The notes beneath the pieces are model-generated. The model was not told the origin of the DNA. It ran no database searches and saw only the letters and a program-made list of their open reading frames with translations. From assembly GCA_034780895.1 (NCBI GenBank), contig JAUZTB010000107.1:28813743-28877742 (forward strand): 64,000 nt of DNA, written 5' to 3'. Numbering within the stretch: position 1 is the first letter of the stretch; each line of letters opens with the position of its first letter. Both the position numbers and the translations under genes were made by a program. The stretch is from Rhynchobatus australiae (Eukaryota). This document shows positions 5,801 through 46,017 of the stretch, one piece after another.

Positions 5801-5869
5801 GGTGAGATCTGGGTAGCTAAACTGCAACCCTTTCAATGATCCAGTGAAAATCAATTATTTCAACAAATC

Positions 5870-5990
5870 AAGTTGAATTTATTGCCATTTGCACAAGTAC
5901 ATTTAGGTACAGGCACAATGAAACCCTTGCTTGCAGCAGCATCACAGGTACGTAGGTACAGACAACACACAGAATATACATTATACATAA
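5870..5990 (-). mobile_element. LINE 3' tail fragment (Rex1/Babar-like)
   Basis: 'tttattgccatttgcacaagtac...caatgaaacccttgcttgcagcagc' resembles the tails at 35880 and 42285. Confidence 0.45.
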
Positions 5991-8900
5991 AATTGATCAT
6001 CATTCATCTTGAATTATTCCTTATTCAATGTTAAACCATGGGGATCTGACACTTGACTAGGCTATTGGAAATATCTAAAATTCCAGCCAGATATCTGATA
6101 AATTTTTCCTCTTGCTATCCATACTTCATGATATGAAGTTTTTACTTTTTGTGAAGGTTTTTAATCAATACCCATCATGTGCAATGTGGGCAACAGGGCT
6201 CCCACTATTTGTTGCAGCTTCNNNNNNNNNNNNNNNNNNNNNNNNNNNNNNNNNNNNNNNNNNNNNNNNNNNNNNNNNNNNNNNNNNNNNNNNNNNNNNN
6301 NNNNNNNNNNNNNNNNNNNNNNNNNNNNNNNNNNNNNNNNNNNNNNNNNNNNNNNNNNNNNNNNNNNNNNNNNNNNNNNNNNNNNNNCTTTGTTGATGGA
6401 AATGAAATGATCTTCAGATAAATTACATTAAAATTGTTTAACTTTCAGTGTAATACCTTTTGTCACTACCCAGAAAGTCTCAAGGGTAAGTTTCACTTAA
6501 TAATATCTTCTTCAAATGACCTCACATTCCAAATGCTAATGGAATAAAACTGTTGCCAATCTTCTGAGGATAATACATGCAGAAAAAAGACATACTGAAG
6601 CTCCATGCTAAAGAATTTTCACAGTAAAGGGGAAATGTATTAAGTCTCTTTGGGGAAAAGTGGATAAACGATAAGCTAGTCTAAATCTGCTTTAGCAATG
6701 GATAATCCTTAACATTTTTCAAGCCATAAAGTAGCTTAGCCGCAATTATTTGTAAAAACATTACCAATCAGCCACACATGACTTGTGCAAAAGCTTAAAT
6801 ATATATAGTCAATTTAAAAAGCATGCAGAAGATAAAAGCTGCAACCCAATAATATTCCACAGAACAGAATTTTTTTAGTTTGTAATGTTTCATACCTAAT
6901 CTTTCTGATTAATCTATGGCTGCAAAAATGAAAATAGAGTTAATGTTTTAGATCACTAATAACATGTTGATGTTTCCAAGATAGCATTTATTGGTACAAA
7001 AAGTAGGTCCATTTAAAGATGATAAAAATATGAAAATTCATAAGGAAGGTTAGTGTATAATCATCATCTAACTCGTCATTGATGAAATACATGATGTCCA
7101 ATTGATGCTATTTTATACCATTTTAATGATGCTGATTTGAAATGTTTAGCGTGAAATACTAATGTCAACAACATTTGATCACAAAATTTGCAAAATCAAC
7201 TCTTAATTTTTAGTCTTCAATTAATAACGTACTTGTCCATTCATAGTATTACACTGGATCATGTATACTTATAATAAGACTGAAATGTAAAAATGCTACA
7301 CACGCTGCCCTTGAAGAAGAAAATTCAGAAAATATCTTTTGTAAGTGACTTAGAGCAGCACCATATTACTATTAAGATTGTATTTTATTTTGGGTCCTGT
7401 GCCAAGATTTTTTCATATTTGACCTAGAACAAAAATGTTTTGACTGAAGTTGCATTTCCATATTTAACACACCTTTAATGAATAAGAGAAAATATTAGGC
7501 TACAGAAGAAAAGCATTTATATTTATTTGAAGTACTGCTTGAATAATATGACTCTGAGAACCCTGCATACAGTACAATTCTTCCTCTCTATGATGTTGAT
7601 ATGAATCTTGCTTTTTTATAGAAGAAATATTTTGCCAAGGTTAACTCTGTAGTAGGAAATACATGATCATATCTGTTGTGAGATCTTTACTTTGACAATG
7701 ATTGTTCAAAATGTTGACATATCAGTGCATGACAAATCTACAGGAAATGATCTTTAAAACAATATGGTTATCAGATAACAAGCTAGACCCTGGGCTATTA
7801 GTGAAAATACAACAGAAAGAGTTGCACATTAATCTGGCTCTACTTCAATTATTTTACAAGAGCTAACAAGATAACTCCAATCAAAATATATGAAAGGATA
7901 CCAATGGTAAGAAACATAAATCAAGCGTTATTTCACAATTTCCTTTATTTTTTTAAAAATACATATAAAAAGGTATTTTCCAAAATCTGTATCACAACAT
8001 GTGGCCAAGATAAATATTTATTATTTCAGCTGAAAATTGGGTTTGGTGCGGTGGGGAGGAGGGGGCGGGGTTATATCTTGGACACCCCATTGATTCCAAA
8101 GGCCAACCTGAATCATTTTTCAGGTAGGACTGTAACTGGCTGAGTAGCTTGTTTGCCCTTTAGTGGCTGGATCCTGCTCAATATTTGCAGATAGATCTGA
8201 CATTGATTATTGGACCCTCAGGTGCAAATAGCTAGAGCACTTGGTGTTCCATATATGTCTGTTCATAGAGAGTACATATGACCTTAGCAATGATTATTGG
8301 GCCCATGAGAGGGACCTCAAGAAACTGGATGAAGTAATTCTTATACTTTGAAAGGACCAGAAGGAGCAGGACTGAAAAAATTATTCCAGCCTGCTGACAG
8401 GATCTATGAAACCCAGTCTCACAATTATTGAACCCCCATGATACTTAATTTTGAACTGCTCGCCATCATAGCATGGGAGAAGCCTCCTTTCAATGCTGTA
8501 CCACAACTGCTACATTTCAGAGAGTTACCTGCTTGCCACCCACAGATTGCCAGCATCTCTCAAATGAGGTCTGGCCTGAGAAATAGTTCATGGTGAAGGA
8601 GAAAGATCTGAATGTTTAGATAAAAAATAATAAAGGGAGATTTGACAGAAAGTTTTGAAGGCCCTGAGCTTATGAGAAATGATATAAATAATGGTAAATA
8701 CCATATTAATGAGACTATAATAATGATTGTTCATTGTTCATCAATATTTAATCACCTGCTATCCAAATGTATAAAAGCCTTCTTATGTATTTAACATCCC
8801 GGCTCTCTTCACAGACTAACAATTGCAATTCAAAAGCAACTGAGCACTGACCATCAGCACCCCTGCCTGAAGCAGGCATTGGCAGTTACATATCATGGGG

Positions 8901-9099
8901 AGTATAGACACCAGTGAGGTAAGTAAAAACAAGGTGAACATCAACTGCTGGTGAGGAGGGTGTTGAAGTGACTGTTGTTGGAGGTTAACTGTTATAGGGC
9001 AGAGATCCAAAAGGCCAGAGCCCATGGGATCCAAGGCAAGTCAGCAAATTGGATCCAAAATTGAAATAGTAATAGGAGACAAAGGGCCAACCTTGGTGG

Positions 9100-9815
9100 A
9101 GGTCCAGTAAAAGTATGACAGATACTATGAATTCTAGGCCCTGGGATGTATTGAGTAACAAAGGGACCTTGATGTACAAATCCAAAGATCACTGGAAGGT
9201 GGCAGTAGATGGTACTTAGGGTGGTGAAGAAGGCAATTGGAATGCTTGTCTTAATTGGCCGGGGCAGGGAAATCATGGTACAGCTTTATAAAATATTTGT
9301 TAGGCCACAGCTGAAATAATGTTTTCCGTTCTGATTGTAATACTATAGGAAGGATATGATTGTATTGGAGAGGATGCAGAGGGATTCATTAGGATTTTGC
9401 CTCGGATGGAATGTTTCAGTTATGATGAGAGATTGGATAGACAGTTACAGGAGCAGAGGAGGCAAAGGGCGGACCTGATAGAGGTATACAAAAGTATGAG
9501 GGCTATAGTTAGGCAACTAGTTCCCCAAAGCTGAGATGTCTAGATCAAAGGACATAAGTTTAAGATGAGGAGTAAGTGATCTAGAGGGGAACTGAGGAAT
9601 AATTTTGTCACTCAGAGGATGATTGCAATCTGGACTGCACTGCACTGCCTGAGAATGTAGTGGAGGCAAATACTCTCACATCATTTATAAATCTGGTTTG
9701 CCAAGGCCCAGTAGGCTTCAGACCAAGTGCTGGTAAATGGATCAGTGTAAATAGGTACTTGATTGTCAGCATGGACATGGTAGGCTGAAGGATCTGCTTC
9801 TGTGCTGTGTAATGA
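9100..9815 (+). mobile_element. Decayed CR1 LINE 3' portion
   Basis: QRDLDV and LYKIFVRPQL-like remnants, then 3' UTR 'gcatggacatggtaggctgaaggatctgcttctgtgctgt'. Confidence 0.8.
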
Positions 9816-9959
9816 CCATTTAATGTATAATGAATCTTTATAATCAAGCTGCTTCTAAAGGTCATCAGAGGCTGTAATCCAACAAGCAATGAGTTCAATG
9901 GAGGGACAATAAGGAACTTTGCATTGAAATTATGGTGGTGTCCAACTAAACAGCTGAAG

Positions 9960-10220
9960 GTAGGAAGAAGGTGCTAAATGGAGGAAGTTGCAAGGAGATT
10001 CCTATTTTTGATGATGAGGAGTCCGGCATAGGTATCAAAATCAGTGGATAACCCATTTCAGCTTCCTTCAGAGGTCCCTGCTATCATTGAAGCTGGTCAT
10101 CAACCAATTCACAGGATATCAAGAAACATCTGAGAGCACTGGATACAACATAGACTATGGGACTAGACAACATCCTGGCTTTAGTGATGAAGGCTTGTGC
10201 ATCTGAACTAGACAAACCCA
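9960..10220 (+). mobile_element. CR1-group LINE fragment upstream of RT
   Basis: Translates DIKKHLRALDTT*TMGLDNILALVMKACASELDKP, resembling the K-GPD-IP...LK-CA-EL motif. Confidence 0.65.
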
Positions 10221-10779
10221 ACAAAGAACAACATTATATCTAATGATATATTTTGGGTTCAGTATGATTCTCCGCTTTTAAATGTAACCTGTAAAATGTG
10301 TTCAGGTACTTTGATATTTTGTGGCTCTCAAACAGATACCTATACTTCAGTCAATTCTAAGACAAGATGGTAATGTCTGCCACTCATCTGCAATACCATC
10401 GTCACTTTCCTTGCCCAGAGCATGCATTACATGCTGAAAGTGAGCAGCCACATATTCATTGAGAATTAAATGCGATATTGCTGCAGTCCTCCCAGTAGGT
10501 GAACAAGTTTCAGCTCTTGTAAAAGCGTTGAAATTACTAGAAAAAAAATGGGAGGACGGAAGGTAATTTTACACTTGAAGGGAATCATGCCAGTTTACTC
10601 TGGGCAGCATACAAGAGTTTGAAGTTAATTACCACACATGATGGCAGACAGCTTTAAGTGCAGTCCTACAGATCTATATCTCTCCATTAATGTTGGCTTA
10701 AATGAATTTAAGATTGTTAGAATGCTAACCGTTATCTTTCTATAATAGCTAGATATAAAATCTTGCCACACACAGAATC

Positions 10780-11710
10780 CCTCTGATCAGTTTGCTACTC
10801 CTCCCGGTCCTGAAATGACCTCAAGGAAAATTATGAATAAGAGCCTCTCTGACTGAAGTTGTTATGTATTATTTACTTAACCTCTTAACAACCTTCAACA
10901 CAGATAACCATATCGTCCCCCTCTGCCGCTCTCCTCTGTAGTGCGGCTCAGTCATCTTGGCTAGCTTGCTTTCACAATTATTTCAGGCAGCTCCTCTCTA
11001 CCCACAGCTTCCCTTCACATTTCACCACGGGATTTTTCCCAAGTACTCTTCCATTGGCCCTCTTCTCCTCCACACCCATATGATGCCCTTGGGCAATATC
11101 ATCTACTGAAATGGCATTGTTCTGCTCCCAGCTCTGTCTCTCCTTCAGTTTTCCTGGTATTCCCTCTTTATTTGTGGAGCTGATCATCCAGCCGGCCAGG
11201 ATTAACTGGGTGGAAGGTGGCCAGTTGGTGGAGTAATTAGGTTAGATTAACTGATCCCTTGCCCCAAGCCTGTGCATTGTCTTTGACTTGGTCTGAAGTG
11301 GACAGCTCACAATCTCAAGTTTCAATTCATTTTCTATTGAGCTGAGTTTCTAACCCTATACCTCCTGCATCTTATAGACTTCCTATTTCCAGCTCTATTC
11401 CATATGATGGCACCCAATTCTGAATGCTAGTGTCTAAATCCTATTCTCCATTAGATTATGGTCAACCAAAGACTTAGTTATTACCAAAATACATTGGTTC
11501 CCAGTCCCAAATGACCTGACTTTAAAATGCATATTTTTGCATTTAAATTCCTCCATGACTGGAGATTCCTTTGTTCTACAACCTTCTCAGGATGCCACAG
11601 TCTGACCCAATCTTTGCATTTTTATGAGCTGCCTTCTTGTGTAGCTACTGCATCATGTGTCCAAACATCTTGCTGGATTCATTTTTCTAAACTCCACCAC
11701 CTTCTTTAGT
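10780..11710 (+). mobile_element. Decayed L2 LINE
   Basis: LLNLLTTFNTDNH (LLDLSAAFDTVDH-like) and IGPLLL...MMPLGNII remnants, with a pyrimidine-rich L2-like 3' part. Confidence 0.65.
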
Positions 11711-13959
11711 TCACTTCTTTAAAGCAACAGAGCTTTTTGGAATAAGTAAGATTTCCAGCTCCCCAGCATGATGAAGTGTTTTCTGCATTAACTCCTAAAT
11801 GGCCTAGCTGCAAGTACAAGATTATTCCTTTATTTTCCCCGTATTTATTTCTCTCGGGCTAACTTTAAACTGATGAAGGTAGTGTAAAATGAGCGATACC
11901 AAGATGACCGTTTGTTCTACATCTCTTCTGCTTTTCAGGTATTTTGTGAACATTGTCAGGGTGTCAGTGACTTGGGATTTAAGTATGTGCTGCTCACTTC
12001 AACAGGCAGTGCACCAGCTATCCAGCTGCTTGCTGGGAACTGCTCAGAAGCAAGTGGTGATCTCCACAGTAGTATGATGGTGTTGTGAGCTAGGACCCTC
12101 CTCCACTGTGGGAAGGTAGCCCTTTGACTTGATTGACTACCCCAATGACTTACTGAAAGCTCCCAACACAGCACTTGTCCTGATTAATTTTTAAGTCGTA
12201 TCACTGCTTACTATACTGCATGGGAGAAAAAGCCCACCTTGTGTAAGGACCTACTGATAAAGTTTANNNNNNNNNNNNNNNNNNNNNNNNNNNNNNNNNN
12301 NNNNNNNNNNNNNNNNNNNNNNNNNNNNNNNNNNNNNNNNNNNNNNNNNNNNNNNNNNNNNNNNNNTACCTGGGTAAGCTAGTTGGCTTTTCAAACCTTT
12401 ATTTCTTAGGTTATTACATTACTTACCCCAAGGTGACTTATTTACATCCATTTCCATTTTACTGCCAATCAAGTTTCGTGATGAGAATCATCTTGAAAAT
12501 GCTGTTCTTCATTTACAGTATTTGAATCTAATGAACATCAGAAAAAGCAAGCAAAATAGATTGGAACTATCATTTTTTTTATGACTGATCCAATTTTGAA
12601 AGTAGCAGCCCGATTAATGACATCCTGAAAAGAATGGAAATCAGTTCTCAGCAGCTTCTCTCTTCAGTGTGAGTAGCTATAAGAGTGGATCAGCTGGATG
12701 AAGAATTTAATTGTTATCATACTCTAGAGGACTGGGAATGCAACTTCAAGGCACTTTACAATCACTGGAAATATTCTGTTTTGGAATTTCTCAAATGACA
12801 TCTACTTTTGCAGTATCTGACCATTTCCTCCTGTTATAGAAGGTTTTCAGGAATTTTTGAGCATTTCCACACAATACTGACACTGAGAGAGTATTTTTCT
12901 TGATGAAAATAAAACTATACACAGAGCTGCACTGTCTTATGAAGCTAAATTGGCATCCCGGACTTAGTGCAAAGCAAACATATTTTAAGAATAAAAGCTC
13001 TCACTCCATTCAATATGTAAATAGTCTTCAGGCAAAATAATGAATTTACACAACCACCCGGACTAGGAGTTCTGCAACAACATCTGGAAGAAGAGAGAGA
13101 ATTGACGATTCAAACCACAAGTCCACCTTCCCCACCTCACAGCAGGAAGGTGAGCATTACTGTAAATTTTCAGCTCTACTGTTCAAGGAAAATGCTTGAG
13201 AATATTGGTGAGTTGTTAATTTTAATTTCTCATTGGATTCAGGATACAAGTTTCCATGTACAACTATTATTCCACTTTTCAATTTTTAGTTATAGTGATG
13301 TGCTGCATTATATTTACTTTTTTACAAAATGGAGGAATTTAACTAATCAACAATCTTTTTCTGATCATTAGAAAAGTTAGTTAAGTTTTGGAATTAGTTT
13401 AGCTATAAAGTCTATCTGCCCATTCAACAGTTTTGCAAAATATTATCCAGGCAAATCCTACCTCATATCTTTGTTATGCTGCAACAGAATTGTACGAGTG
13501 GGTTCATTGTTACATTATAGATTACATGATTGCAAATGCTAAAACTTATCATTGGATTCACATTGGGTGATTTGGTAAGTAGGATAAGAAATATAAAGGA
13601 TTATAGTTCAAGGAAAATTAAACAAATTATAGAACGAAGAAAAAGAGCAAGCTATAAAAATGGGACTTGATTGTCCATCTACATTTGTGTCTGTGTGTGT
13701 GTGAAACAGCAGACAAATTGCCAAGACCAGAGCTATGCACTGCAATTTAAAAATTTTACTCACATTGTTAGGTTCTTGTTCAACAGTATCAAATGTTAGG
13801 AGCATGGGATTGTGCCTACCTCCTTCTTGTATTCTGAATGTGTCAATCTTTTAGGGGTCAGATAGAATTATATATTTCACTGAGGGTCATGGTTGGATTC
13901 CTCCAAACACCCCTCCTTTGTAGCCTCACTCTTCTTCTCAGGGCCCATTTGGGGTTATA

Positions 13960-15645
13960 CAAACAAATGAATTAGGAGCAGGAGTAGGCCATTCGACCCT
14001 TAGGCACACTCCACCATTCAGTAAGATCATAAATGATCCGATAGTGGCCTCAACTTCACAATGTTACTTTCCATTCCCCTCCCAATATCCTTTCACCCTT
14101 TTGCATATTGTACCTCTGTATCTGCCTTAAAAAGATTTGAAGACTCTGCTTCCTCTGCCCTTTCAGGAAGAGAGCTCTACGGCTCTCTGACAAAGGAAAA
14201 TGTCTCATCTTTTTTAAATGGATGATCCCTAATTTTTAAGCACTGACCTCAAGCAGAAACATCCTTTCCACAGCCACCTTGTTAGGACCCCTCAGGATGT
14301 TTTAATTGTTTCCACCACTCTTCCAAACTCCTGTGCAACACAAAACTGGCCGTCCAACTTTTCCTCATTAGGTAACCTACCCATTCCAGATGTCAGACCA
14401 GTAAATGGGCACTGCAGGTAGTGCAGCAGTCTTGCAGTTCCAGTGACTTGGGCTCAATTCTGACCTCCAGTGCCATCTGTGTGGAGTTTGCATGTTCTCC
14501 CTGTGATTGTGTGGCTTTCCCCTGGGTGCTCCACTTTCTTCCCTCATCCAAAGATATCTGCTTGTTAGGTTAATTGGCTAATACATATTGCCTTTGGTGT
14601 AAGTGGGTGGTAGAAGAATCAGAGGGGTGTTAATGGGTATACAAGGGAGAGAATAGTTTACAGGAAAATAAAATGAGAATGGGATTAATGGGATTGCTCT
14701 GAGAGCTGACATAACTCGATGGCCTGAATGGCTCCTTCCATGTTGTTAGGGAATATGAAATAAGCCTTCTCTGAGCTTCTTCCAATGCCTTTTATATCCT
14801 TCCTTAAATAAGCATACATAGTAATCTGAATGTGGACTCGCCAATGCCCTATATAAACAAAGCATAACCTCTCTGCTTTAGTATTCAATTCCCCCTTGTA
14901 ATATACAACAACATTCTGTTGGTTTTCCTGCATAATAGCCTTTCGTGAATTGTACCAAGGACACACAGATACCTTTGCATCTCAGAGTTCTGCAATCTCT
15001 TATCATTTAGATAGTACTTTTCCAGCCAAAATGGAGAATTTCTTATTTTCCTATTTTATACTCCATAAGCCCTATCTTTGCATACTCACCTTACTCACAT
15101 GCTCACCATATCATCCCTCCAATACCTCCTTGTGTCCTTTATGCAAATTGTTTTCCTAAATTGTCATCAGCAAATTTAGCAACAGTATCTTGCATGCTAT
15201 TATCCAAGCACTTTTCATAAAATTGGGGCCTACTACTGGTACCTGTGACACATGGCTTGTTACAGTTTACCAACCAGAAAAAGGCCATTTATGTCTACTC
15301 TCTGTTTCCTGTTAGCCAGCAATCTTCTATCCATTCCAATACACTACCTTTTACNNNNNNNNNNNNNNNNNNNNNNNNNNNNNNNNNNNNNNNNNNNNNN
15401 NNNNNNNNNNNNNNNNNNNNNNNNNNNNNNNNNNNNNNNNNNNNNNNNNNNNNNTCTATCCATTCCAATACACTACCTTTTACAGCAATAATTTTTGATG
15501 CAGCATCTTATTAAGTACCTTCCGGAGATCTAAGTCAAGCAAATCCACCAGTTCCCCTTTATCAGCTTGTTACTTCTTCAAAAAACAATAAGCTGGTTAA
15601 ATACGCTTTCCCTTTTGTATAATTATGTTAACGTTGCCTGATTAC
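13960..15645 (-). mobile_element. Decayed CR1 LINE interrupted by a SINE
   Basis: Reverse-complement 3' UTR 'ttaggagcaggagtaggccattcgaccc'; RT remnants continue on both sides of 14405-14760. Confidence 0.75.
14405..14760 (+). mobile_element. V-SINE (HE1-like) inserted in CR1
   Basis: V-domain 'tctgtgtggagtttgcatgttctccctgtg...gggtgctccactttcttccctcatccaaaga', with a tRNA-like head and CR1-like tail 'ggcctgaatggctcctt'. Confidence 0.8.
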
Positions 15646-15809
15646 AAAAGCTGTGGCAGGCTGAGAATGTTTGCTGCTCATAATGTAATCAGCAGTCTCT
15701 GAGGTTTGCCCTGAAATTAGATTACTAAAATTTGCAATCAATCCTGCCTCAGCCTTTTAAATTTATTCAAAGCGAATGTCAAGGTGACTAAATTTGAACA
15801 GAACTCAAC

Positions 15810-15950
15810 AACAGTTTTCTAAAAAAAAGGCTGTTAATCTGAAATGTTAACTGCTTCTTTCTCCACTGGTGTTGCTTAATCTGCTGGGTATATCCAGCAT
15901 TTTCTATTTTTATTTCAAATTTGCATCATGTACAGTATCTTGCTTTTGAA
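15810..15950 (+). mobile_element. Penelope-like element terminal repeat, decayed
   Basis: 'ctgaaatgttaactgcttctttctccac...ctgctgggtatatccagcattttctatttttatttc'; same family as 17880-18010. Confidence 0.7.
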
Positions 15951-17879
15951 CCACCAAACATCTTAACCTGTGCGCCTACTGAAAATGCCAACCTGCATCC
16001 CATCAATGTTGAAAGAAAACTGATTTGTGGCTGGGGGCTGCAGCACTTTTGAGATCCAATTATTTTTTATTAGTTTTGTTTGCTAGAATTATGTCAGGTG
16101 CAGTGAGTCAAAGGCCCAGAAGTCTGGGATCCAAACCACTGCTGATCAGGTTTCATTAGCAGTCGTCAGGAAACCACACTCTATGAGCCATCTAATTTTT
16201 AATAAAAAATAATTATTCATAAAAATACAATTAGAACTGTTCCAGTTCACAACTGCCTTTTTTTTCAGGCATTTCTCAGGTTTAATTTTAATTAAGTGCT
16301 TGCTTTGGCTGACATAAAGCTTTTACAATTCAGTCTCCAGTTTCTACTGGTCTTTTGGAAAAGCCAAGAAATCCTGAGATCACCACAGAACAGGGAGATG
16401 TCCTGTTGGTGCTCTGAAACTCCTGCTGGAAAATTCCTCAAACTCAACATGTTCAGAGTACAAAACTGTGATAAGAGCTCTTTCTGACTGCTGCCTTATA
16501 AAGGACTAGATCAGGTAAGCCCTGTGCCACTGCCTGCTGTCCACACCTAACTACACATCTTCTGTGTGCAGAAGGTCAGACAAGCTGGCCTGTTATACCC
16601 AACAGATACACAGTGCATTGNNNNNNNNNNNNNNNNNNNNNNNNNNNNNNNNNNNNNNNNNNNNNNNNNNNNNNNNNNNNNNNNNNNNNNNNNNNNNNNN
16701 NNNNNNNNNNNNNNNNNNNNNNNNNNNNNNNNNNNNNNNNNNNNNNNNNNNNNNNNNNNNNNNNNNNNNNNNNNNNNNNNNNNNNNNNNNNNNNNNNNNN
16801 NNNNNNNNNNNNNNNNNNNNNNNNNNNNNNNNNNNNNNNNNNNNNNNNNNNNNNNNNNNNNNNNNNNNNNNNNNNNNNNNNNNNNNNNNNNNNNNNNNNN
16901 NNNNNNNNNNNNNNNNNNNNNNNNNNNNNNNNNNNNNNNNNNNNNNNNNNNNNNNNNNNNNNNNNNNNNNNNNNNNNNNNNNNNNNNNNNNNNNNNNNNN
17001 NNNNNNNNNNNNNNNNNNNNNNNNNNNNNNNNNNNNNNNNNNNNNNNNNNNNNNNNNNNNNNNNNNNNNNNNNNNNNNNNNNNNNNNNNNNNNNNNNNNN
17101 NNNNNNNNNNNNNNNNNNNNNNNNNNNNNNNNNNNNNNNNNNNNNNNNNNNNNNNNNNNNNNNNNNNNNNNNNNNNNNNNNNNNNNNNNNNNNNNNNNNN
17201 NNNNNNNNNNNNNNNNNNNNNNNNNNNNNNNNNNNNNNNNNNNNNNNNNNNNNNNNNNNNNNNNNNNNNNNNNNNNNNNNNNNNNNNNNAAAAAATTCAC
17301 TTATTGAGGGAAAAATGCCCGATTGTTTTCATGTGGAAGTATTATGAATTATTTAAACAATTTACAGGGAAATGCAATTATTTCATATATGAAAAATTTT
17401 AATTAAATATTTGAATACTACAATGTCATGATAAACTGAAATAACTTTTGTCAAGAGGTATGATACACAAGATGATTAGTGCAATATTGAGATTACTTAA
17501 TGTCCATATTAATACATTGATCTTCACTAGGGCAAGAGGTCACTTAACATAGGGACTAGATTATACAAACAGCTACATTATAGTAACCCAGTAAGCATCA
17601 CCTGCACTCCAGGATACAAAAGGCCAAGTAGAATGATCTATGAAAAAAGAGCAGCATGATTTTAGGTTTTACGCATTCGGGTTTTGAACACAAATGCAAC
17701 AAGGTAATAAAGAACTTGTATTAGATTTTATTTCAGTTGCAGGTGATAGGACAATGTGTAATTTTGGACAACCCATTACAGATGGTGTACTGTCGCATAG
17801 AGTAGATGCAATGTTGGAACCAAAAGTAAATTATTGACCTGACTGGGAAATTCAAACTGGCTGAGTGAGGGGAGGAATC

Positions 17880-18270
17880 AAGAAGCAAAATACAGCAGAT
17901 GCTTGAAATACAAACAGAAGATTCTGGAAATACTCAACAGGTCAACAGCATTTGTGGAGCAAGAAACACAGTTAACATTTCGGGTCAATGACCTTTCATC
18001 AGAACTGAGAACAATGAGAAATAAAGCCAATTTTACATTGAAGAGAAAGGGCTGGGGTGGGACGTGGTGTGTGGGGGAGTGGTGACAACTAAAGGAAAGA
18101 TCTCTGAAAGGGTAGACAGCAGGGGAGGCTGAGTGACAGAAGCATTGGTGCCAGATGAAGGAGGGTGGTTCAGGTATGACCAGAAGAGATATAAAAAGGA
18201 AGAGGTCAATGAAATCTGAATGCCAGAAGAGGAGAGAGAAAAAAAACAAAGTGAATCCAAGAAATGTGTG
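17880..18270 (-). mobile_element. Penelope-like element 3' end (pLTR) with hammerhead motif
   Basis: Terminal repeat 17880-18010, preceded on the minus strand by a pyrimidine-rich UTR-like tract; contains the HHR core. Confidence 0.75.
17969..18007 (-). ncRNA. Minimal type-I hammerhead ribozyme motif (PLE-type)
   Basis: Minus strand reads CAGUU-CUGAUGA-A-AGGUC-AUU-GACCC-GAAAU-GUU-AACUG: 5-bp stem I, intact CUGAUGA and GAAA boxes, 4-bp stem II, GUU triplet. Confidence 0.7.
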
Positions 18271-18384
18271 AAGTAAGTCTGGAATGCTGATTATTATTGA
18301 ATTCAAAAGTGTCACATAATGGGTTAGTAATCAAAATGCGACTAAAAGAGTCCTCAAAAATTTGTCATATGCTGCAGTTATTCA

Positions 18385-18465
18385 CCAGACCCAAAACGTC
18401 GACTGTTTATTTCTCTCCACAGACGCTGCCTGACCTGCTGAGTTCCTCCAGCATTTTGTGTATGC
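18385..18465 (+). mobile_element. Penelope-like terminal repeat fragment, inverted relative to 17880-18010
   Basis: 'gacccaaaacgtcgactgtttatttctctccacagacgctgcctgacctgctgagttcctccagcattttgtgt'; retains CpGs, so probably younger. Confidence 0.75.
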
Positions 18466-18504
18466 TTCACCACATTTATAAATTAGTTTGATGATAGTAT
18501 GCCA

Positions 18505-19090
18505 CATTTTCAAGTTTGCTACTGGCATGAAGATAGGTGACATTGTAAGCAATCTTAAGGAAGCACTAAGATACACAGAGATGCCAATAGATGGAGTGAA
18601 TGGGCAAAATTATGGCAAGTGGATTCTGACATAGTCAAATGCAAGGACAGACCAGGCTACTTTATAGATATTGAACAGCTAGCAGTGGAGTATATGCAGA
18701 GGACTAGAATACAAAGTCCTATTTATACCACATTTGATGTACTGTCAGCAGATCTATATTCACACATATGGACCTTGGAGGGAAAGGGTAAAGATTTACT
18801 AGAATGATACTTATCTCCACAAATTAAACTACAGTGTTTAACACAAATGTGGAAAATTTCTAAATCTCAGGGAGGAATTTGATTAGAGTTTTCCAGATAT
18901 TAAGAGGAATAAGGAGGCCGAATTGAGAGAAACCATTCTCATTGGTTGAACAGTTTAAAAATGAGGGGCAATGTCTGAAACTCAGAACCAGGAAGCAAAC
19001 ACACAGGGGGGGTTACAGAAATTAGGAACTCTCCTGCAAATGGTAACCGACAACAATTATTAATTTTACATCTGAGATTAGTAGATTTTT
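18505..19090 (+). mobile_element. Highly decayed CR1 LINE RT
   Basis: KFATGMKIGDIV (KFADDTKIG-like) and EWAKLWQ remnants. Confidence 0.6.
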
Positions 19091-20993
19091 TTCCCCCATT
19101 CCTACTGTAGATTCACTGGGATAACATATGCAATGGTAGGCATGGATACAATAAGAGATTTGGAAGTCAGGGACTGCAATCACTAGAGTGGCAACAGTAA
19201 ATAGGATTTTAAAATATGAGAGACAGAGAAAAGACTACTTCAATTCATCAGTGAATTGTTAAGGACTGAGCATGCATTTAGGATTAGCAATGGGAACATA
19301 AAAGGAGCAGTTAAAAGATTTCTTTCAAGGGAAGGATAATTAGAACATGGAATACAACTCAACAAGTAGCTATTGAAGTCAAATCAATCACAAGGTTTAA
19401 GAGGCAAACTAATAAAAATTATTTTAAAATTAGTATAAAGATCAGAGAAAAGAGATTATACAATGTGAANNNNNNNNNNNNNNNNNNNNNNNNNNNNNNN
19501 NNNNNNNNNNNNNNNNNNNNNNNNNNNNNNNNNNNNNNNNNNNNNNNNNNNNNNNNNNNNNNNNNNNNNCAATGTGAAACTGGCACCAGTATTGGTAAAG
19601 ATGGCCAAAAGCCCAGCTTCTAAAGTAAGACTTCCAAGATTCCACAGCGATATTTCTTATGTGGTTGAGCCATATTGTACAGCTGTTCTTAGCAGCTATA
19701 ACACTGGAGTTTCCTTTATTATATTGAATACTGACCGTTCATTGAATTTGCAACGCAATAATCTCTATTTTAAGTTAACATTGAATTTAATCAACTTAAA
19801 TTTTATTCTATCAGTGGCTTTGAAAGAAGTTAACAGTGAAGCTTAACAACTTTTTGAGACATTAAATTCTAGACACAGTCATCATATCTAGTCTAGCCCA
19901 AGACCAAGAAACAAATACTTCACAAATTATAAGGAGAGCATATTGTGGAAGACAGTCCTGTGCATCAGATCTAAAAGTGAAGAGATAAAATGGGTACTGT
20001 ATTCCTGGACAAAATGCAGGTGTCATAATCATGACAGGTGAAGAAAGGTACAAGAGTTTGACTTGATATTTTACTGTTTTTAATCTGCCTCATGAAAATC
20101 ATGACATCATTCAAACTTTTCCTCCTATATGAGTCAAAGTGATGTGTAAAGAAATACAGTCCAGTTGTTCATGCAACTAAATCAGCTATTTATCACCCAT
20201 TTGACTTCTGGGAGTCACTGAGTCCTGGGAAATATAAAACATAATTTTTCATTTTAATTTTTATCTGCAGATTTCTAGATTTCACCACAGTGCAGACACC
20301 TGAACAAAGAAACTGAGGACACAGCAGAATGTTTAATTTTTTTTTAAATAAAGCTCTGTTTCAATAGTATTTGCATTCATTTACTATACTTCAGATAAAT
20401 ATAGAAACAAATGCTTGTACTAAAATAGCATTTCATAGGATTGACACCTCAATAATATTAATGGAAACTTATTACAGGATTTTTGGTTACAACTACAAGG
20501 AGAGGGTCACCTTTTGGAAATTTTTTTAAGACCATTTTGGGAAAGTAAAACTAGAATGGTAGAGATTAAGACAAGAGGATATGGATTCAAATTTGATATC
20601 TGAGTTAATTTAATAATCCAGCATCCTTTTCACTTTTGATGCTGCCTTTGTCATATTTGACATAGTGAGTTAATTAACAACTTTTAAAACTCCCACCATA
20701 CCAAACATTGTTCCTCCCCTATTCATACTAACTTCTATTGTGTTTATGATCCTCATCACACAGGTATCAAAATACATTTTATTTTTATTTACAAATGCAT
20801 CTCTTTGCCTCTTAGCCTAAAACCCACATGCTACAGCTTTTGTGCAGACTCTCAATTTGTTCCTAGATTGTTTACTGAATCTAACACAGTAACAGGACCA
20901 CAATTTGAGATTCTTTTCCTTAACCCATTCACCTTGTTGTATCTCTCTTTATTTTGAAAGCATCATGAAAATCTCTGTTTTGGGGCTAATTTT

Positions 20994-21290
20994 CAAAGTA
21001 AAATACTGCAGATGCTAGAAAGCTGAAATAAAAGCAAAGGTGGAAATACTCAACATGTCAGGCAGCATCTGTGACAAGGGAAATTGAGCTAATGTTTCAG
21101 GTCAATGACCTTTCAGCAAAGCTTGGATAAATAGAAATGAAACAAGGAGAGAAAGTGGGGAGTGGCAGAGAGAACAAAATGAAATGTTTGCCATAAGGTG
21201 GAGACCAGGAGAGATCAACAAGTTGAGATGGTACTGGTTGAATGAAGGAGGTCAAACTACTTTTGGAAGAGAAGCAAGTAATTTCTTCTT
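20994..21290 (-). mobile_element. Penelope-like element 3' end with degenerate hammerhead
   Basis: 'aaatactgcagatgctagaaagctgaaataaaagc...ggcagcatctgtg...gtttcaggtcaatgacctttcagc' plus an adjoining purine-rich tract. Confidence 0.72.
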
Positions 21291-24200
21291 GGTGTCTATT
21301 TTCCTTTTCAAGAGGAACCTCTGCAATACCGCACCATTCCCGAACCCTCCATGTTCCTGCTCATCACAGTTGCATCCTGACTGAGGTTACATTACCAACA
21401 AAAAGATCATTTACGTACGAAAGAATGGCTTCCAGCAGAGAGACAAAGGGAACTACACCCTATACCTTCCTCCATAGAGATCCAACTTCCTTTACAATTT
21501 GTTGCGGCTTCTTTTCCAAACACTTGAATTTGTAAGCTGTTATGACCACATGTTCAATCTCTTAACTCAATGGCCATTGAATATGACATTTTCTCAGATT
21601 GTTTGTTGTTACCCAAGTTCCACAGTCAAGCAGAGATGACTTCATTTACTTTTCGTTCAGCATAGAGGAGCAGGCAGAGTGTTTGCATTGAATGCTGCTC
21701 TTGGCTGTAACCCTGTTTTTTTTAAACAGGACCCACTCTATAAAGAACATGCCTCCTTTGGGTACTGTTCTTCCCCAGACTGCCTACATATTTTTTGATC
21801 CCATTGGAAGATCTTCCCACCACGGCAGCAACTAGTCATTAAGCAGCGAAACAGCCCAGAAGCTGGAAGAGTGCGACTTGTGATATGTCCCTTGAAAGGT
21901 TAACTTCTGACAAGGCAGCTGCAAGGCTAAATGCTACCAGGGCTTGCAATAGATCTAGAGTACTGCCTTTCAAAAACAGCACTAGTATGACACACAACAC
22001 TATTTTAACACTATTAAAGTGAAGCTGGACAATTTCTAGGCCCACATGTCTTGTACCATGAGCTCATCCCATCAATATAGAATAGCAGCTCCTCAAAAAT
22101 GTCCAAAGTAATTTTTCCAATTGGGATCAGGAATTCAGGTTCNNNNNNNNNNNNNNNNNNNNNNNNNNNNNNNNNNNNNNNNNNNNNNNNNNNNNNNNNN
22201 NNNNNNNNNNNNNNNNNNNNNNNNNNNNNNNNNNNNNNNNNNGGAATTCAGGTTCTGAGAATGATTAACTGATTGATTGTTTCCCATGGACAAAACACTG
22301 AGACATTCAAACTACTTTTTTCAAGCCTATGAGGGTATCTACTTATTCAGGTTAATTATTTAGCAAAGAAATCAATTTAAATATCAGGGCATATAGGCTA
22401 GGTGTATGATGGAATTTGGGTTAAAATTTTTGTTAAGGTGTAGATAACTTACCAAGCAAAATCATTTAAATGCATGATACTAATGGATCAAAGATATAAA
22501 TGGCTAAATTTTTGCAGAGAGCAGGGACTAAATTATATAGTGAGAATATGAGTAGGTGGATGATAAGTGTTGAACATAATGCTCTTTCTCTGTTCTGTAA
22601 AATGTTATTTCCTTATATAATACAATGCAAGGGGAGGGATGATGGTTACAAAGAAACAGTGTACTTCAGTTATATAAGACAATCTGTTGTGGCGTTTAAG
22701 ACAAAACAAAATGTTTAAGGTTAAAAAATGTCACTCAGCCACTTCTCAATTTTATTTCCTTTTCCCTTTGGTGAATTTTGCATGATTTTATTCCCTACTG
22801 GTAGGATTAGCCAGGCCTCTAAAGGCTTGTGTAAATCTAAGATAATCTGCAGTAAAATGAGTTAATTATATTTTGCTTTAATATTCTTATCTCAGGAACA
22901 TCTGTTTAAACAGTTTAAGCCTACATCACAGAGAGTCAGATTTCCTTACCTTTTGGGGGGTGGGGGAATTAGCAAATTATTGACTTTTGAACAATCTCAA
23001 CTAAATAACATTTAAAAATAATTAGTTATAAAAGATTTTGTTAAACAGGAAGTTATCTGCGGAAATGACCAAAAGTTATAATCATTAAGCATAACAATGC
23101 TGCAAAAGTTGATACTTGTAAAAGCAACTGCATCCGTTCTCTAGAATGTGGTATCTGCTTTAGTCACATAGACTGTTCATGTGAAAGTTGCAAACTACAA
23201 TACCAAGAGAGGTTCAGAATTTATGCTAACCTACAAAACTGGATTTCTTTTGTAGGTAATAAAGTAAATAGATTTATATTCTTAATTTAGAACTTAAGCT
23301 GCTACAAATAAAGAAGCTGCTTCTCGTTTGCTACATTTACTCAAAATCATCTGCAGCAAACCTCAAACAAATCTGCTGGTAATTTGAATAAATGTTCAAA
23401 CACTATTACAGAATTGGGATGTGAAGAATATCCACATCAATTAGAAAAGGCATGTTAATTTTGCAAGAATTTAATGAAGCATTTCAAAATGAAATTGGCC
23501 AATTAGCCTGTAGCATTTCTATCCATTATGGATATGGCATGAAGTATTATTTCATGGAAAACCTACTGATAAATATTGCCTTTCCTACTCTGAATACTGT
23601 AAAGCAGTTTCCTCTCTTGTAAACTGAAATTGCTGGAAGTTGCTCATTGAAGAGTTGCCTTTGACCTACAAACATAGGGGGAGGATGGATTAAAATGAAG
23701 GCTGCCCTCTTGTGAACTTTCATATCAGTATGCTCTCATTTCAGTTTTGTGAATTTCAAGCTGTTGTTGCAAGTGTAAAAACGAACACAGTATAATTCAT
23801 TCTGAAACATTATTCATCTTAGTAAATAAATACTTAATGTGAGTTCTGCTTCAGGAGAGCTGGGTAGAATATTGATCCAGGTAACTGATAAGTAAAGTTA
23901 ATCACTTGTTTAATAAATTCATGTTTTTGTTTAAATGGAAATTAACTTCATGGAACTAGTTTTGCCTCTTCCCATATGTTATCTTCTCATATGAAAGTCT
24001 AAGTTCTAAGGTTGAACAATGTCTACTTGGGCTGACATTTCCTTAAAGAAAACAGAATTTGATCAGGTGGAGACTGTGTTCTTCCAAAGCTATGTTGACT
24101 GCTGTTTTGCTTGGTTCTTTCTGAAATTCTCAATGCTTCTAATATTTCGCACAGAAATGATGACTGATAGTTTGTGTGACCTTTCAGAACCATCTGAGCC

Positions 24201-26644
24201 CAATTTACTGGCTACTAAGTTCATTGCACATCTCAGGATACCCTCTCTATCCAAAACATATTGGGAGTACACTATGCTAGGAGTGAACTAATAAATACAA
24301 AAACTACTTAAATATCTGTAGTTTCTGAAAAGCCATAGGTTTCCACTTATGGATGGAATTGTTGCCTTATGATTTTGAGGATCAGTCTACTAACATATTT
24401 TAATGCACTGTAAATATGATTGTTTCTCCTATGGAGTTTGTATACATTTCTTTTATTTCCTTGATATTTATTTTCATTGTCAAACACATTTAAATATTGT
24501 ACTTTCCTAAGATAGTTATTAATAGCTGCTTCAATTTATTAAAAACTTGATATGAATTTGAAGTAACTTTAGATTCCATTTATGTAATATTCCTACCTAC
24601 AGTGGAAACAGTGGCTTAGAAATTGTGGAGTGCCATTATATTGTGCCATTGTGAGATAATACAATGTATATTTCAGTTGTGAGTCCACCAAAGAAAACTT
24701 CAGTAGCAAATGTGATACATTTTTTCCTTGATGTACTGTAAAGCAGATGCACAGATTGGGTCTGTTGAGTGGGGGAGGGTGCAGGCAGTATTGGGGGTGG
24801 AGGGGTGGTGAGGAGAGGATTAGAAGAATGGGATCAGTTGTAGTGTCTATTACGGCCTGAGGTGGGGCTTTAGTTTGGCTATTAGAGAATGATTGCCACT
24901 TTGTTGGTGGGAAGAGATCAGAGCGTTCACTGGGAAATTGGAGAATTAGCACTTCAGTGGTGGATCTTTGTGGGGGTTGGGTGTGAACATTAAAAAAAGG
25001 AATAGTGCTTATTTTAGTGGGTCTGCTACATGCTGAAATGCAATGAAAACATGGTGGCCACAGGATTTAAAACTTATGCTGGAACATATCCAGTTGACTT
25101 TCCAGAGAGAGGGAAAATGACTGAGGAATGGTTATTACTGCACTTCACGTTGTCCTAAGTACATTTTCAATTGAGTGCCAATGAANNNNNNNNNNNNNNN
25201 NNNNNNNNNNNNNNNNNNNNNNNNNNNNNNNNNNNNNNNNNNNNNNNNNNNNNNNNNNNNNNNNNNNNNNNNNNNNNNNNNNNNNGTTGATCAAGATTGC
25301 ATTACTGATTTCTGAAAACTAAAAAAGCTCCGTAAAAAGCTGCAAAGCTTTTCCTTCCTGTGTCACCACCCACCCATCCCACCACTTTATTACAGCACTA
25401 AAAATGTTATGCTTAAAAACTATTGCAAACATACAGCATTTTTAACATATTACTATTTTTACACTGCATTCACACGACTCTATTTGTAATGAAAGCCTCA
25501 AGGTTTTTAAAGATTCCACAGTACAACTGAATACAGCATCTCATCACTACTGTGTGGCCAACGTTTTTACCATCACCAAAATCAGACCAAAAGATCAAGC
25601 ACTTTATTATGGATTGTGGACCTTCTCATGAGCAAAATGAATGTCATTTTCACATGCGTAATTGCAACTCTGGGACCTCTCATGGCAGGTGATAATACCT
25701 AAGTTTTTTGTTCAGCTGTTGCACAAAATATAATTGTTTCAGTATTTTATGATACAGTAGTTGAATCGATGTCAAATGCAACTTTACTTAAAGTCCAAGT
25801 TTTGATTACATGTTACGTAAACTTATTCCTGACAAAGTTTTTTTCATTGATTGACAATATTGCTCTAGTTAGCAATGAATTTATCATGAATATAGGCTTG
25901 TTTTATCTCTCTTAAAAGTTCTCTCAGTAACTTTTTATTACTTTACAATTTTCTCTGAAGATTATCATTGTGTTTATAATCTGTGAATTTATATCTTTAA
26001 TATTTTTATATTAATTTGTTTGTCCAACTTTCAATTTTTGGACCTGGAAGATAAGTTCTTCAACACAAAATGAAGAATTAAGTCACTATTGATAAATAGT
26101 CAAGAGATGTGTTAACCTTGGACAGAAACAGGGTCTGTTTTTACCACAGATTTTTCCAGGATTGAAACAGTAGTGAACATTTTATTTTCCCTACAGTGTG
26201 CCTTGGCCCAACCTGTAGGTTATCTCTGCCTCACCAATGGAACTTCCTCTACTTCTACAACTACGTTGTATTGTGTGGGGATAACATTTGTAGGTCCGAC
26301 AAATGAAAGACTATAAGTATAATACAATCACGTTCTGTACCAGGAACTTTAATGCATCATATTTATGAAGCAAATGTAAAAATATGGGAAAAAAGTTAGA
26401 AAACTATTCTACCCTGACCTTAAGATTAAAAAAAAACTTATATTTGTTTCTTTGCATTTAAGACATTTCACCTGGCAGACACTCCCTCATCTTGAGTCAT
26501 TAAAGAGCAATGTTAAACTCTGTCACCAACATCAGAACAACCATCATTTGGAAGAGTTGCACTTGTAAACCTGTCCCTCTGGCAAGGAAACCCGTCACCC
26601 CTTCACCCTCGCACTTCTCAGCAGAGTGCAAAAATAATGTTCGA

Positions 26645-26990
26645 AGAACACAAGAAGTAGGGGCAGGAATAAACCATGTGACCCCTTGAATCTCTGTGCC
26701 TTTCAGAACATCATGCATGATCTTCTGTCTTCATTTTCTTATGCACATATCGTTTGATTCCACTGTTATCCAAACATGTATTGAACAAGTTTCGAATGAA
26801 GTCAATGACTGAGCTTGCACAACGTGCATTAATACAAGAAAAATGAGGCATGATACATATGGAAGAATAACCATCACCCACCTCCCCTCCCTCCAGTCCA
26901 CTATTGTACTGACCCTGTTGAATTTTGTTTGAAGATAAGCTCTGCAATATTTCACCCTCTTTTCCCCTTCCACATTGGTTGCTTCTACTA
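26645..26990 (-). mobile_element. CR1 LINE 3' end
   Basis: 'agaacacaagaagtaggggcaggaataaaccatgtgacccc' is the reverse-complement CR1 3' UTR. Confidence 0.6.
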
Positions 26991-29389
26991 TTTCTTTTTC
27001 TTTGAATGCTGAGCTTTTCTTTCAATGAATTGTTTTAATTCTGTAGAGTTCTAAGATTATCATGTATTAAACATTGTTTTTCCCTTACTTCTAGTTTACT
27101 TCAGCTCACAAAGTCCCAGACTCCAAACAATTAGCAGCAGATGCTTCAAATATTGAACAGCTTGAAACAAGACTGAGACAGGAAGTTGGAGGAGAGAATT
27201 TGGCACCACCTGCTGAGCAGAAACTGAGTGGGTGGGCTGTTAGATTCACCCTTGTCATTTAATCTTCCTGATGCTGAAGGATGTAGATTTCAGTATTCAA
27301 CTTAGCAAGAGCATCCACTAAAAGCTGGTAGGGTTTATTTTTGTATGTGCCTTGGCTCACGGGAGTGGAATTATTGCTTGGGTGAAAGCTTTGGTGGCCT
27401 TCCTGCCAGATAAATCATGCCATGAATGCCCATACAGGTACCCAAGTTCAGAAGGAGTTCAAGGCTTCCCATGTTGTGAACCTCCCACTATATCATGATC
27501 AGAAGACCCCTGATGGCAATCCCAACAACTGATCCCACAACCTATTGATCACTGAATAACTTCAAGGTGCACTGCTGCTTTCCTGTTGGAACTGATCAGA
27601 ACTCAATTGATGAGATTTAAATGAATACTGGCATTTACAACATCTCTACTCATCTGGCTAAAACCTTCCCAGATAAAATTTAACATTCAATGCCAAATTT
27701 TATCTGGTTGATCAATGTACTGGTGTGGACATAGTGGAAAAGACTCAAAAATGACTAACGTAAATAGTACTAGACCTTCAAACTGTTTAAATATTTAGAA
27801 CTCAGTTAAATCTTATTGCAAGGAAATGAAGACAGTTGTGAGGAAATTACACCATATTTAATGAGAACTATCAAGTTCTGTACTTACTTACCTTAAGACA
27901 AATTTATACTGAGATGTAGCAGTATAGAGTAATAGAGAAATTGACCTCTATTGTACTCACTGGTATGAAACAGGCACAATCAAGACCAGATTTAGGACCA
28001 ATTATTATTTTCCAAATGATGCCTGAAAGATACCCATCATAATTGCGGGATGAACCATTTTCAGGCATCCTTGATAGCTGCCCAAAACAGATGTTGGTTT
28101 CTTTACATTTATAACTGAGAAGCCTAATGCCTATGTGTACCAACTCCGGGGAATTGTAACACAGGGGGAATCCAGCCTCTTTAGCAGCAGGCACACTATA
28201 AACAAATTGCTGCTGTGTGCAGAAATGCTCCCACAATTCCACAACATGTTGAATAATGATCATGTTAATGAGCCCTAAGACCTAATTTCAGTCTAGTTTC
28301 TGGTTTGGACGTGTGGTGTCTGAAACTGGCAATGCATCAAAATGGGCCATAACCATTTCCTAGAGAGCTCAAAAAGTTGTTCTTGTCCTACTAAGTGGAA
28401 TCATCTAATTACACAGTCCATAGGCAACCAATTAGTTAATCAAAAACTTCACTTAACCTAGCCATTCAATCGCAAGAATCTTTATCCTATTAAAAAGTTC
28501 AAACACATTTTATTTTCTGTTTAGGTACTAATTGGACAAACTCTACCCGTCAGATTACTGATCAGTTACCAGAACAGCACTTCAATCCTTTCTCTAATTC
28601 TACATGTTATCAACTACCAAGTGCTGTTCATCTGAACTCTCCCCAGCATTTGCCTCTATTCCTTAAGAAAATGTCCCTAGCTTTACGTGATTTTACTTTC
28701 TTTTGCTGCTTTTAATAATTTGCAGTTCTTCTGTTTTAGAAATTTACATGCCATTGCATTTTAGGTATTTTTATTCTTTTGTAAGTGGAACCGATTCAAC
28801 ATTTCTTTGCTAAGTGTCATTTAATAACATTTTGGAAGGAATTCTTTTCCGGTAAGGATGACTTCACAGATTTCTTTTAAACTGGAAATGGATTGACAGG
28901 TTTGTTGAGTGAGTGTTAAGAAAATAAAAGTTAGGATAATCAATGTGGAGAAATGATGAACAGTTGTCATCAACAACATTTTACATCTATAAAATGCCTT
29001 TAATGTAGTAAAACAACCTAAAATGCTTCTTAAAGAACAAAGGACTCGTATTCTGGGAATGGGAAGTCTCATGATTGTATTTCTGGGATGAATGTTATTG
29101 CAAGGAGAATATTTCCTCGACAGACAGCACAGTTAATCTGCACACAGCTGAATCTTTTGTACCTTCGATCCTGATTTAGGCAAAGGAATACACAGGTGTA
29201 TCATGCTCAGCAATGAAATATGCTTCAGCAAGGTTAATAAAAGATATGAAAAAATGAGACTCAAGGAATTTGAATAAGGATACATCATCATTTTCAAACC
29301 ATCTTTCCTCCTCCCACCCATACAAAGGCACAGCAATGAGTGCAGAACATCAGACCACCTACTACATTAACTGCTTTCTTCACATTAGA

Positions 29390-30120
29390 AACATATTGCA
29401 TCTTTCTTCATGGCACCTTTTATGACCGCAAGATGTCATACAGTTATAAAGTCATAGAGCATGGAAACAGACCCTTCAGCTAGTCCATGCCAACTAAGGC
29501 ACCCATCTAAGCCAGTCCCATTTGCCTGCATTTGGCCCACATCCCTTGAAACCTTTCATATGTATTTACCTGTTCAAATGTCTTTTAAATGATGTTAATG
29601 TACCTTCCTCAACTAGCCCATTCATAAGCGGTGTTACCTTGAGTAAAATGTCCCAAAGTATTTTATAAGTACTTATGAACTGTGGTCACAAACATTCTAC
29701 AGGGAAAAGTCATTTTTGCAGATACAGATAATCTGTTTTACTGATGTTGAATAGGAACAAATATTGGCCAGGACTCTTGACAGAACTCGGCTTCACTGAA
29801 TCCCTTAATGAGATCTCATGCTGTCATCTCAGGAGAACAGATGGTAACTCTGCTTAACATTCTTTGAGAACCATTTCTTATCTCATCTGAAAGACAGCAT
29901 CTCTAATAACCATCTCNNNNNNNNNNNNNNNNNNNNNNNNNNNNNNNNNNNNNNNNNNNNNNNNNNNNNNNNNNNNNNNNNNNNNNNNNNNNNNNNNNNN
30001 NNNNNNNNNNNNNNNNGACAGCATCTCTAATAACCATCTCAGTACTTACGTATTCAGGTCTCTGGACTGCAACTTGAATTTGCGTCCTTACTCAGAGGAA
30101 GTGAGTTATGATTGAGCCAA
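29390..30120 (-). mobile_element. Deu-domain SINE with a CR1-type tail fragment inserted at about 29445-29620
   Basis: 'aaatattggccaggactc...tctcatctgaaagacagcatctc' is the reverse-complement Deu core; the insert begins 'gtcatagagcatggaaacagacccttcagc'. Confidence 0.6.
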
Positions 30121-34224: not shown

Positions 34225-34635
34225 CCTTGGTTCGGTGGAAACTCCACCACCATTTTGTTTCAGAAGTGGAAAAAGTCCCTCTCCAGAGTACATGATCTAA
34301 GCTGACACAAAACAGTATTAGACCAGTATAACAGCATCAGTGGTGCTGCCTTTCAAATGAGACATAAAGTGAAACTTTTCCTACTCTCGGAAGTGTAGAT
34401 AAAAGTCAGTATGGCTTCACTTCAAATTTCTCCGTGTTGTCCTGTCAACATTCATCTTTCCACCAATATCATTAAAAAAGGCCACCATCGCATTGCCACA
34501 TATGGGATGTCATCAGTGCAAAATGGTGTTGCAACAGTAATCACACTTCAAGAAGTATTTAATTAACTATGATTCTGGAATGTCATGAGACTGTGAAAAG
34601 CTGCATGTACATAAATGCACATGGTCTTCCTTTTA
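34225..34635 (+). mobile_element. Deu-domain SINE, near full length
   Basis: 'tctaagctgacac...ggtgctgcctttcaaatgagacataaa...cacacttcaagaagtatttaatt...tgtgaaaagc...ataaatgca'. Confidence 0.65.
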
Positions 34636-39220: not shown

Positions 39221-39244
39221 TTCTTGCCAAACTTATTATGAAAC

Positions 39245-41882: not shown

Positions 41883-41889
41883 GCCTGGG

Positions 41890-42275: not shown

Positions 42276-42279
42276 AAAA

Positions 42280-42567: not shown

Positions 42568-42584
42568 TACACTGCAGTCCTACA

Positions 42585-46016: not shown

Positions 46017-46017
<1 letters not shown>

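Follow-up and report, generated by a model that had tools for sequence, protein, structure and literature searches.

A hammerhead motif inside an ADAMTS9 intron

Does a hammerhead ribozyme operate inside a large intron of ADAMTS9 in the ray Rhynchobatus australiae, or is the motif found there only what an old transposable element has left behind? The window (the whole stretch of 64,000 nt that was analysed) contains TSP1_ADAMTS exons on its minus strand. The homologs of one of these exons (n = 63) were nearly all named ADAMTS9, a few having no name, and the best of them was from a shark (75%). Two exons that follow one another directly on the minus strand, coding for residues 1371-1429 and 1430-1485 in the numbering of the best homolog, define the host intron:

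2847..55556, minus strand: ADAMTS9 host intron, 52,710 nt, GT-AG, bounded by these two exons

Since the ADAMTS9 exons lie on the minus strand, the hammerhead is sense in the pre-mRNA. The first-pass annotation had placed the motif in this orientation in a 52-kb ADAMTS9 intron, and the gene structure bears it out; from the same structure, the intron is presumably transcribed. We consider it highly probable that the hammerhead came with the terminal repeat of a Penelope-like element (PLE), an old and 5′-truncated copy that lies sense in the ADAMTS9 intron, and that it is likely inactive there.

Structure of the motif

Re-reading of the minus strand from 18007 to 17969 confirmed the spelling given in the first-pass annotation. 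The motif is composed as follows, all on the minus strand:

17969..18007: minimal type-I hammerhead motif, core 12/12, with A10.1·C11.1, U15.2 and U17
18007-18003: stem I, 5′ strand
18002-17996: C3-A9 box
17995: extra A after A9
17994-17990 / 17986-17982: stem II, with a 3-nt loop
17981-17978: G12-A15.1
17977, 17976, 17975 and 17974: U15.2, G16.2, U16.1 and U17
17973-17969: stem I, 3′ strand, 5 pairs

The predicted cut falls between 17974 and 17973. All 12 bases of the core boxes (C3-A9, G12-A15.1, U16.1 and H17) are present, and the earlier call of a hammerhead with intact catalytic boxes and a 5-bp stem I is thus confirmed. The extra A at 17995, the 5-bp helix I and the helix II with four of its five pairs agree with the minimal hammerheads (min-HHRs) of PLEs. 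Two other min-HHR features are lacking: the G10.1-C11.1 pair is A·C in the window copy (C at 17982), and the palindromic 15.2-16.2 dinucleotide is UG, where the family has CG. Helix III consists of A15.1-U15.2-G16.2-U16.1 only and has no loop, so that it falls short of the stable helix III with which RECK-type hammerheads act as monomers.

The isolated 39-mer folded into stems I and II with an unremarkable energy (z = -0.83). The folding program cannot score A15.1-U16.1 (loop <3 nt), and the zero probability that it returned for this pair was left unused. Searching with Rfam between 16000 and 20000 gave no match to the hammerhead models, the sole result being one chance snoRNA (E = 9.1). The descriptor search that the first-pass annotation had proposed was also run. 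A strict descriptor matched once in the window and twice in genome samples (60 of 10 kb each, evenly spaced), and it matched nowhere in 30 dinucleotide-matched simulated windows, which rules out a chance origin of the motif.

The insertion that carries the motif

The feature is the pLTR end of a 5′-truncated PLE insertion that extends from about 18305 to 17880:

18010..18305, minus strand: 3′ UTR/pLTR body of the truncated copy, with paralogs 60-75% identical
17880..18010, minus strand: conserved pLTR end ('arm') of the same copy, with the hammerhead, a pyrimidine tract, a CAG-ATG-like motif (CAA here) and the 3′ end

This copy begins, at its 5′ end, with the final codons of the GIY-YIG ORF. 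In three paralogs (L206, L222 and L223) the match to PLE protein runs up to the base that aligns with window position 18294, and the window frame at that point reads EFNN, resembling the ends of family ORFs. The window's own sequence gave no protein match by tblastn. Among 26 paralog loci (24 found via the upstream UTR part alone and two more), 12 have a PLE-protein match directly upstream on the same strand, and in 20 of the 24 the same strand carries a family end downstream. These ORF remnants bear out the origin from a Penelope-like element with a minimal type-I hammerhead that had been proposed from the motif.

The family ORFs comprise a reverse transcriptase (RT), a CX2CxxC linker, observed in L093, L120 and L126, and a GIY-YIG-like end. 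To judge from the sequence, this linker may point to a parent PLE of the Neptune/Nematis type. A search with an RT piece returned 17,493 candidate matches in the genome. Homologs of the family ORFs carry PF00078, PF26215 and PF01541, and the best of them are from rays and sharks. When five local PLE ORF pieces were run against Pfam, RVT_1 and GIY-YIG appeared in two, all below threshold; none of five shorter local pieces matched, and a PDB search with the PLE pieces gave nothing relevant. No complete pLTR-ORF-pLTR unit was present among 19 mapped ORF loci, most of which are broken by masked stretches. The flanks of the insertion share just an 8-mer, which is compatible with chance, as a target-site duplication. 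Separately, three ray proteins annotated as host genes (P0001, P0004 and P0033) match PLE RT at 63-66%, suggesting from this similarity that PLE sequence may have been absorbed into host-gene models.

Another observation concerns the part of the family end right after the cut site (window about 17970-17949, minus strand). It carries a branch-point-like TTAAC/TCGAC and then a pyrimidine tract, followed by CAG in 54 or TAG in 16 of 105 family ends and then by ATG in 72. This arrangement of TTAAC/TCGAC, pyrimidine tract and CAG resembles a 3′ splice site and is perhaps the acceptor of a pLTR intron. A role of the window copy itself as a cryptic splice acceptor was rejected, as the CAG of the family is CAA here.

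Size, covariation and decay of the repeat family

A first look found 2,040 candidates in the genome for a repeat end of about 115 nt that starts with the hammerhead; the occurrence of the motif is therefore accounted for by a repeat. A family profile built from 108 copies identified 116 ends in 505,767 unmasked bases of an independent sample, with none in the reversed control, and 13 ends in the window, 12 of them within the ADAMTS9 intron. Extrapolation from the 116 ends in 0.51 Mb gives about 430,000 ends in the genome. The full 12-base core is kept in 12 of the 61 ends that span the whole motif (the count leaves out the 55 of 116 that do not), which extrapolates to about 45,000 genome-wide. 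Among so many core-intact copies, a special standing of the window copy is not supported. Exact searches returned 1,292 copies of the fully canonical pattern (G10.1-C11.1, full helix II and ACGU) and 44 copies of the pattern of the window copy's subfamily, with no match for the reversed-pattern controls. The family ends showed no depletion on the sense strand, 6 of 13 being sense in the window and 11 of 24 across the 134-kb locus, although this is a weak test.

The hammerhead boxes are retained across the family; the first-pass annotation had named a genome-wide consensus without them as what would refute the hammerhead reading, and this refutation fails. Both stems covary. Of 60 ends, 21 had U-A at 2.1-1.1 and 19 had C-G (Fisher test, P = 7e-5). 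At 10.1-11.1, there were 17 A-U and 1 A-C compared with 25 G-U and 21 G-C (n = 73, P = 0.003). These counts represent a few subfamily-level events and not independent changes. As stems I and II covary across subfamilies, the ribozyme of the parent element was probably under selection. The genomic copies have decayed otherwise: core positions were conserved at 482 of 549 and downstream positions at 988 of 1150 (P = 0.32), so retention of the core is no better than that of the downstream part, as for neutral decay.

Decay of the CpG in the ACGU palindrome, suspected from the window copy in the first-pass annotation, is evident in the 98 sampled ends that cover both 15.2 and 16.2: CA was found in 41, TG in 22 and CG in 11. 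The A·C mismatch at the base of stem II has another history. In the A subfamily, to which the window copy belongs, 15 of 20 copies read TG at 11.1/G12, which implied that the parent of this subfamily had A10.1-U11.1 and that the C at 17982 is a later change in the window copy. Of the A10.1 copies with letters on both sides, 17 of 19 have A-U, and the sister subfamilies have G-C. Judged by these related copies, the mismatch is a U11.1-to-C change and not a G-C pair that was lost.

Some other arrangements were noted in the family. In one subfamily (L141-L200; window 43139-43035, minus strand), which accounts for 19 of 76 ends, a C replaces A9 and is followed by A. At L228/L229 (G000:C1:2828230-2828339) two canonical hammerheads lie on the same strand 76 nt apart, and they could in principle dimerise. 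Opposite-strand neighbours within 700 bp were found for 43 of the 116 sampled ends, compared with 16.5 expected and a maximum of 34 in 1,000 randomisations.

Neighbouring copies and the prospect of cleavage

Two neighbouring family ends bear on the behaviour of the window copy:

18387..18464, plus strand: another pLTR end, inverted and belonging to a sister subfamily, without the 5′ catalytic box
21023..21126, minus strand: nearest same-strand family end, core 10/12, with a CA palindrome complementary to the UG of the window copy

As the inverted end belongs to a sister subfamily and is located about 80 nt past the truncation point, it is probably a separate insertion. Its antisense is read about 380-400 nt before the hammerhead. 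This antisense end was predicted to pair with the 3′ half of the hammerhead, with a probability of 0.89-1.00 at all eight positions checked, and its duplex with the 39-mer had a predicted energy of -24.1 kcal/mol. Four more inverted pairs of the repeat end are present in the intron (33016-33193, 39272-39455, 43035-43225 and 43487-43830) and are potential dsRNA hairpins. As for partners in sense orientation, the core is not intact in any of the other five intronic ends on that strand, although 2,950 masked bases could hide a partner. About 32 kb further downstream, the ADAMTS9 intron that follows holds a sense copy with a 12/12 core (L135:5476-5364, minus strand).

The predicted energy of the active fold was -2.3 (homodimer) to -5.7 kcal/mol for the window copy and -7.7 to -8.3 kcal/mol for three CpG-intact copies. 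The 4-bp self-duplex was predicted at +2.6 kcal/mol in the UG form versus -1.7 kcal/mol in the CG form. In none of the 15 folds with at least 100 nt of upstream context did the probability of stem I exceed 0.01, and stem I formed transiently, with a probability of up to 0.53, with just 20-50 nt. The CpG-intact copies also mostly lost stem I in context; thus, context folding alone cannot separate live copies from dead ones. A GUU triplet and a missing G10.1-C11.1 pair both reduce the cleavage rate. Our literature search gave no numbers for the effect of stem II base pairs or of GUU on the rate.

According to the account in PMC4209133, a single min-HHR did not cleave and dimers had low activity. 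The anole PLE hammerhead was described in PMC11167929 as cleaving only together with PLE protein, with no RNA-seq ends reported there at its site. A review (PMC6765202) states that PLE hammerheads likely act solely as dimers, and slowly. GUU is counted among the cleavable triplets in PMC3138052.

Taken with published PLE biology, these results suggest the following course. In the parent element, two motifs would pair via the ACGU palindrome, and the resulting dimer would cleave the transposon RNA, either weakly or with the help of protein. At the window copy, transcription of ADAMTS9 would produce the antisense of the inverted end first, and this would then pair with the 3′ half of the hammerhead as a long duplex. 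With no intact partner nearby, an active dimer would not form and the intron would be spliced normally. The first-pass annotation had suggested that this copy could cleave nascent RNA, with the caveat that the A·C mismatch and the U·G pair may make it weak or inactive. The caveat stands and the cleavage is not supported, since the inverted end is predicted to lock the motif and an intact partner was not seen in the intron. The A10.1·C11.1 mismatch, the CpG-decayed palindrome, the intact intronic sense partner that was not seen and the antisense lock together make the window copy likely dead.

Conservation and alternative explanations

The insertion is found at the same place in contigs of organisms B, D and E; run X3 of the ortholog comparison had no coverage of the insertion site. 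In a contig of organism D with single-copy depth, 17931-18012 showed no substitutions and one gap over 82 nt, compared with 75 changes in 1,031 nt (about 7.3%) in three flanking contigs. The naive P value was 0.002, and about 0.009 after discounting the choice of the motif for its intactness; both come from one pairwise comparison in which rate variation was ignored. The CpG at 17982-17981 is present in both the window copy and the D ortholog. Over 17600-18006, 10 of 408 nt are different in organism B, and four of these were located among the differences listed. Compared with the majority of its subfamily, the window hammerhead is changed at 1 of 33 positions and 22 sampled copies at 9-34%; these positions exclude the loop, the CpG and two variable columns, and the good preservation is partly a selection effect, as the copy was chosen for looking intact.

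Chance resemblance to a hammerhead might be argued from the modest folding z-score and the lack of a hammerhead match in Rfam. However, the empty simulated windows, the occurrence of the boxes family-wide, the stem covariation and the place within a PLE terminal repeat all speak against it; covariation and PLE context have already refuted this reading, and its probability is practically nil. We also give very little credence to weak residual activity by heterodimer formation with another decayed copy, which would nick the intron occasionally and harmlessly. The decay forms AUGU and ACAU of the palindrome are mutually complementary, and in such models decayed family copies could still build a Watson-Crick helix III as a heterodimer. 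With the copy at 21.1 kb or L135 as the substrate strand, all four stem III pairs would be Watson-Crick, and CA is the most frequent form among the sampled ends (41 of 98). Such a heterodimer would nevertheless have just 8-9 intermolecular pairs, with predicted energies of -3.2 kcal/mol (21.1-kb copy) and -5.7 kcal/mol (L135), and its partners are 3 kb and about 32 kb distant; the local antisense lock that it would compete with is predicted at -24 kcal/mol. The mismatch at the base of stem II would also persist.

It is possible, though unlikely, that the copy was co-opted and that purifying selection has kept it, either for slow ribozyme activity in the intron or for a regulatory function as RNA or DNA (duplex, splicing or enhancer). 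The unchanged 82 nt in D beside flanks changed at 7.3%, the position of the window copy as the least-diverged hammerhead among 23 subfamily copies and the insertion shared by B, D and E are consistent with it, and the conserved intronic hammerheads of amniotes described in PMC6155905 provide a precedent. However, the D evidence is a single comparison blind to rate variation, and the adjacent 86-nt stretch (18029-18113) also has no difference in D among those listed. D carries both damaging changes, A·C and U·G. Moreover, E has no orthologous piece over 17942-17983 among the matches listed, and the downstream part of the window copy has diverged from the subfamily majority at 8 of 57 positions. 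With only one D comparison, a small chance of constraint remains. A fuller scenario is very unlikely; in it, co-option would predate the divergence of several shark or ray species, selection would hold the hammerhead as an intronic switch of ADAMTS9, and the upstream antisense end would gate its cleavage, or pairing with a complementary decayed copy would license it.

Relation to known elements and significance

The decayed remnant that we prefer to see here belongs to a motif class that is already published (Cervera and de la Pena 2014, PMC4209133). As described there, the min-HHRs of metazoan PLE pLTRs have several features in common with the present family: they are type I with no helix III loop, and have an extra base after A9, a 5-bp helix I and a palindromic 15.2-16.2; they are mostly solitary copies from truncated PLEs, with opposite-strand pairs within 700 bp. 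Unlike those min-HHRs, the window copy has lost both G10.1-C11.1 and the palindrome, and its subfamily had A10.1-U11.1 and U17, with a helix II of 5 bp and a 3-nt loop. As two features of the min-HHR consensus fail, we classed the window copy as a PLE remnant rather than an intact min-HHR. The account of PMC4209133 does not mention sharks or rays, and its supplements may list motifs from cartilaginous fish; our literature search found no paper on PLE hammerheads of sharks or rays.

EN+ PLEs of the Neptune/Nematis type, as described in PMC8557442, are alike in their RT followed by a C-terminal GIY-YIG, their CX2CxxC linker and their 5′ truncation. An inverted 5′-truncated copy next to the insertion is a further point of likeness, but the inverted end here has a sister-subfamily sequence and its position is beyond the truncation point. 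Non-LTR retrozymes, reported in one chondrichthyan genome (bioRxiv 10.64898/2026.07.22.740005), are likewise PLE-derived and non-coding with a type-I hammerhead. In contrast to these elements, defined by at least two consecutive tandem units with complete hammerheads, the window copy is a single motif still joined to the PLE 3′ UTR, and it forms no tandem array, the nearest same-strand end being 3.1 kb off and broken. The conserved intronic hammerheads of amniotes such as that of RECK (PMC6155905) share the type-I form, the retroelement origin and the sense position in a large intron. According to that source they are canonical-like and conserved across whole classes, whereas the window copy is minimal, damaged and has a mere hint of conservation.

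As it stands, the window hammerhead matters little, being one decayed copy of a published motif class, and the facts at the level of the family are mildly useful. The approximately 430,000 ends far exceed the published figures for coelacanth and Xenopus (4,000-9,000 motifs), which were counted differently. It seems that an old subfamily operated with a non-canonical A10.1-U11.1 pair together with U17. If constraint held across species, a minimal PLE ribozyme would have been domesticated in a vertebrate intron; the switch scenario, if true, would make it the first minimal hammerhead of the PLE type to be domesticated in a vertebrate gene.
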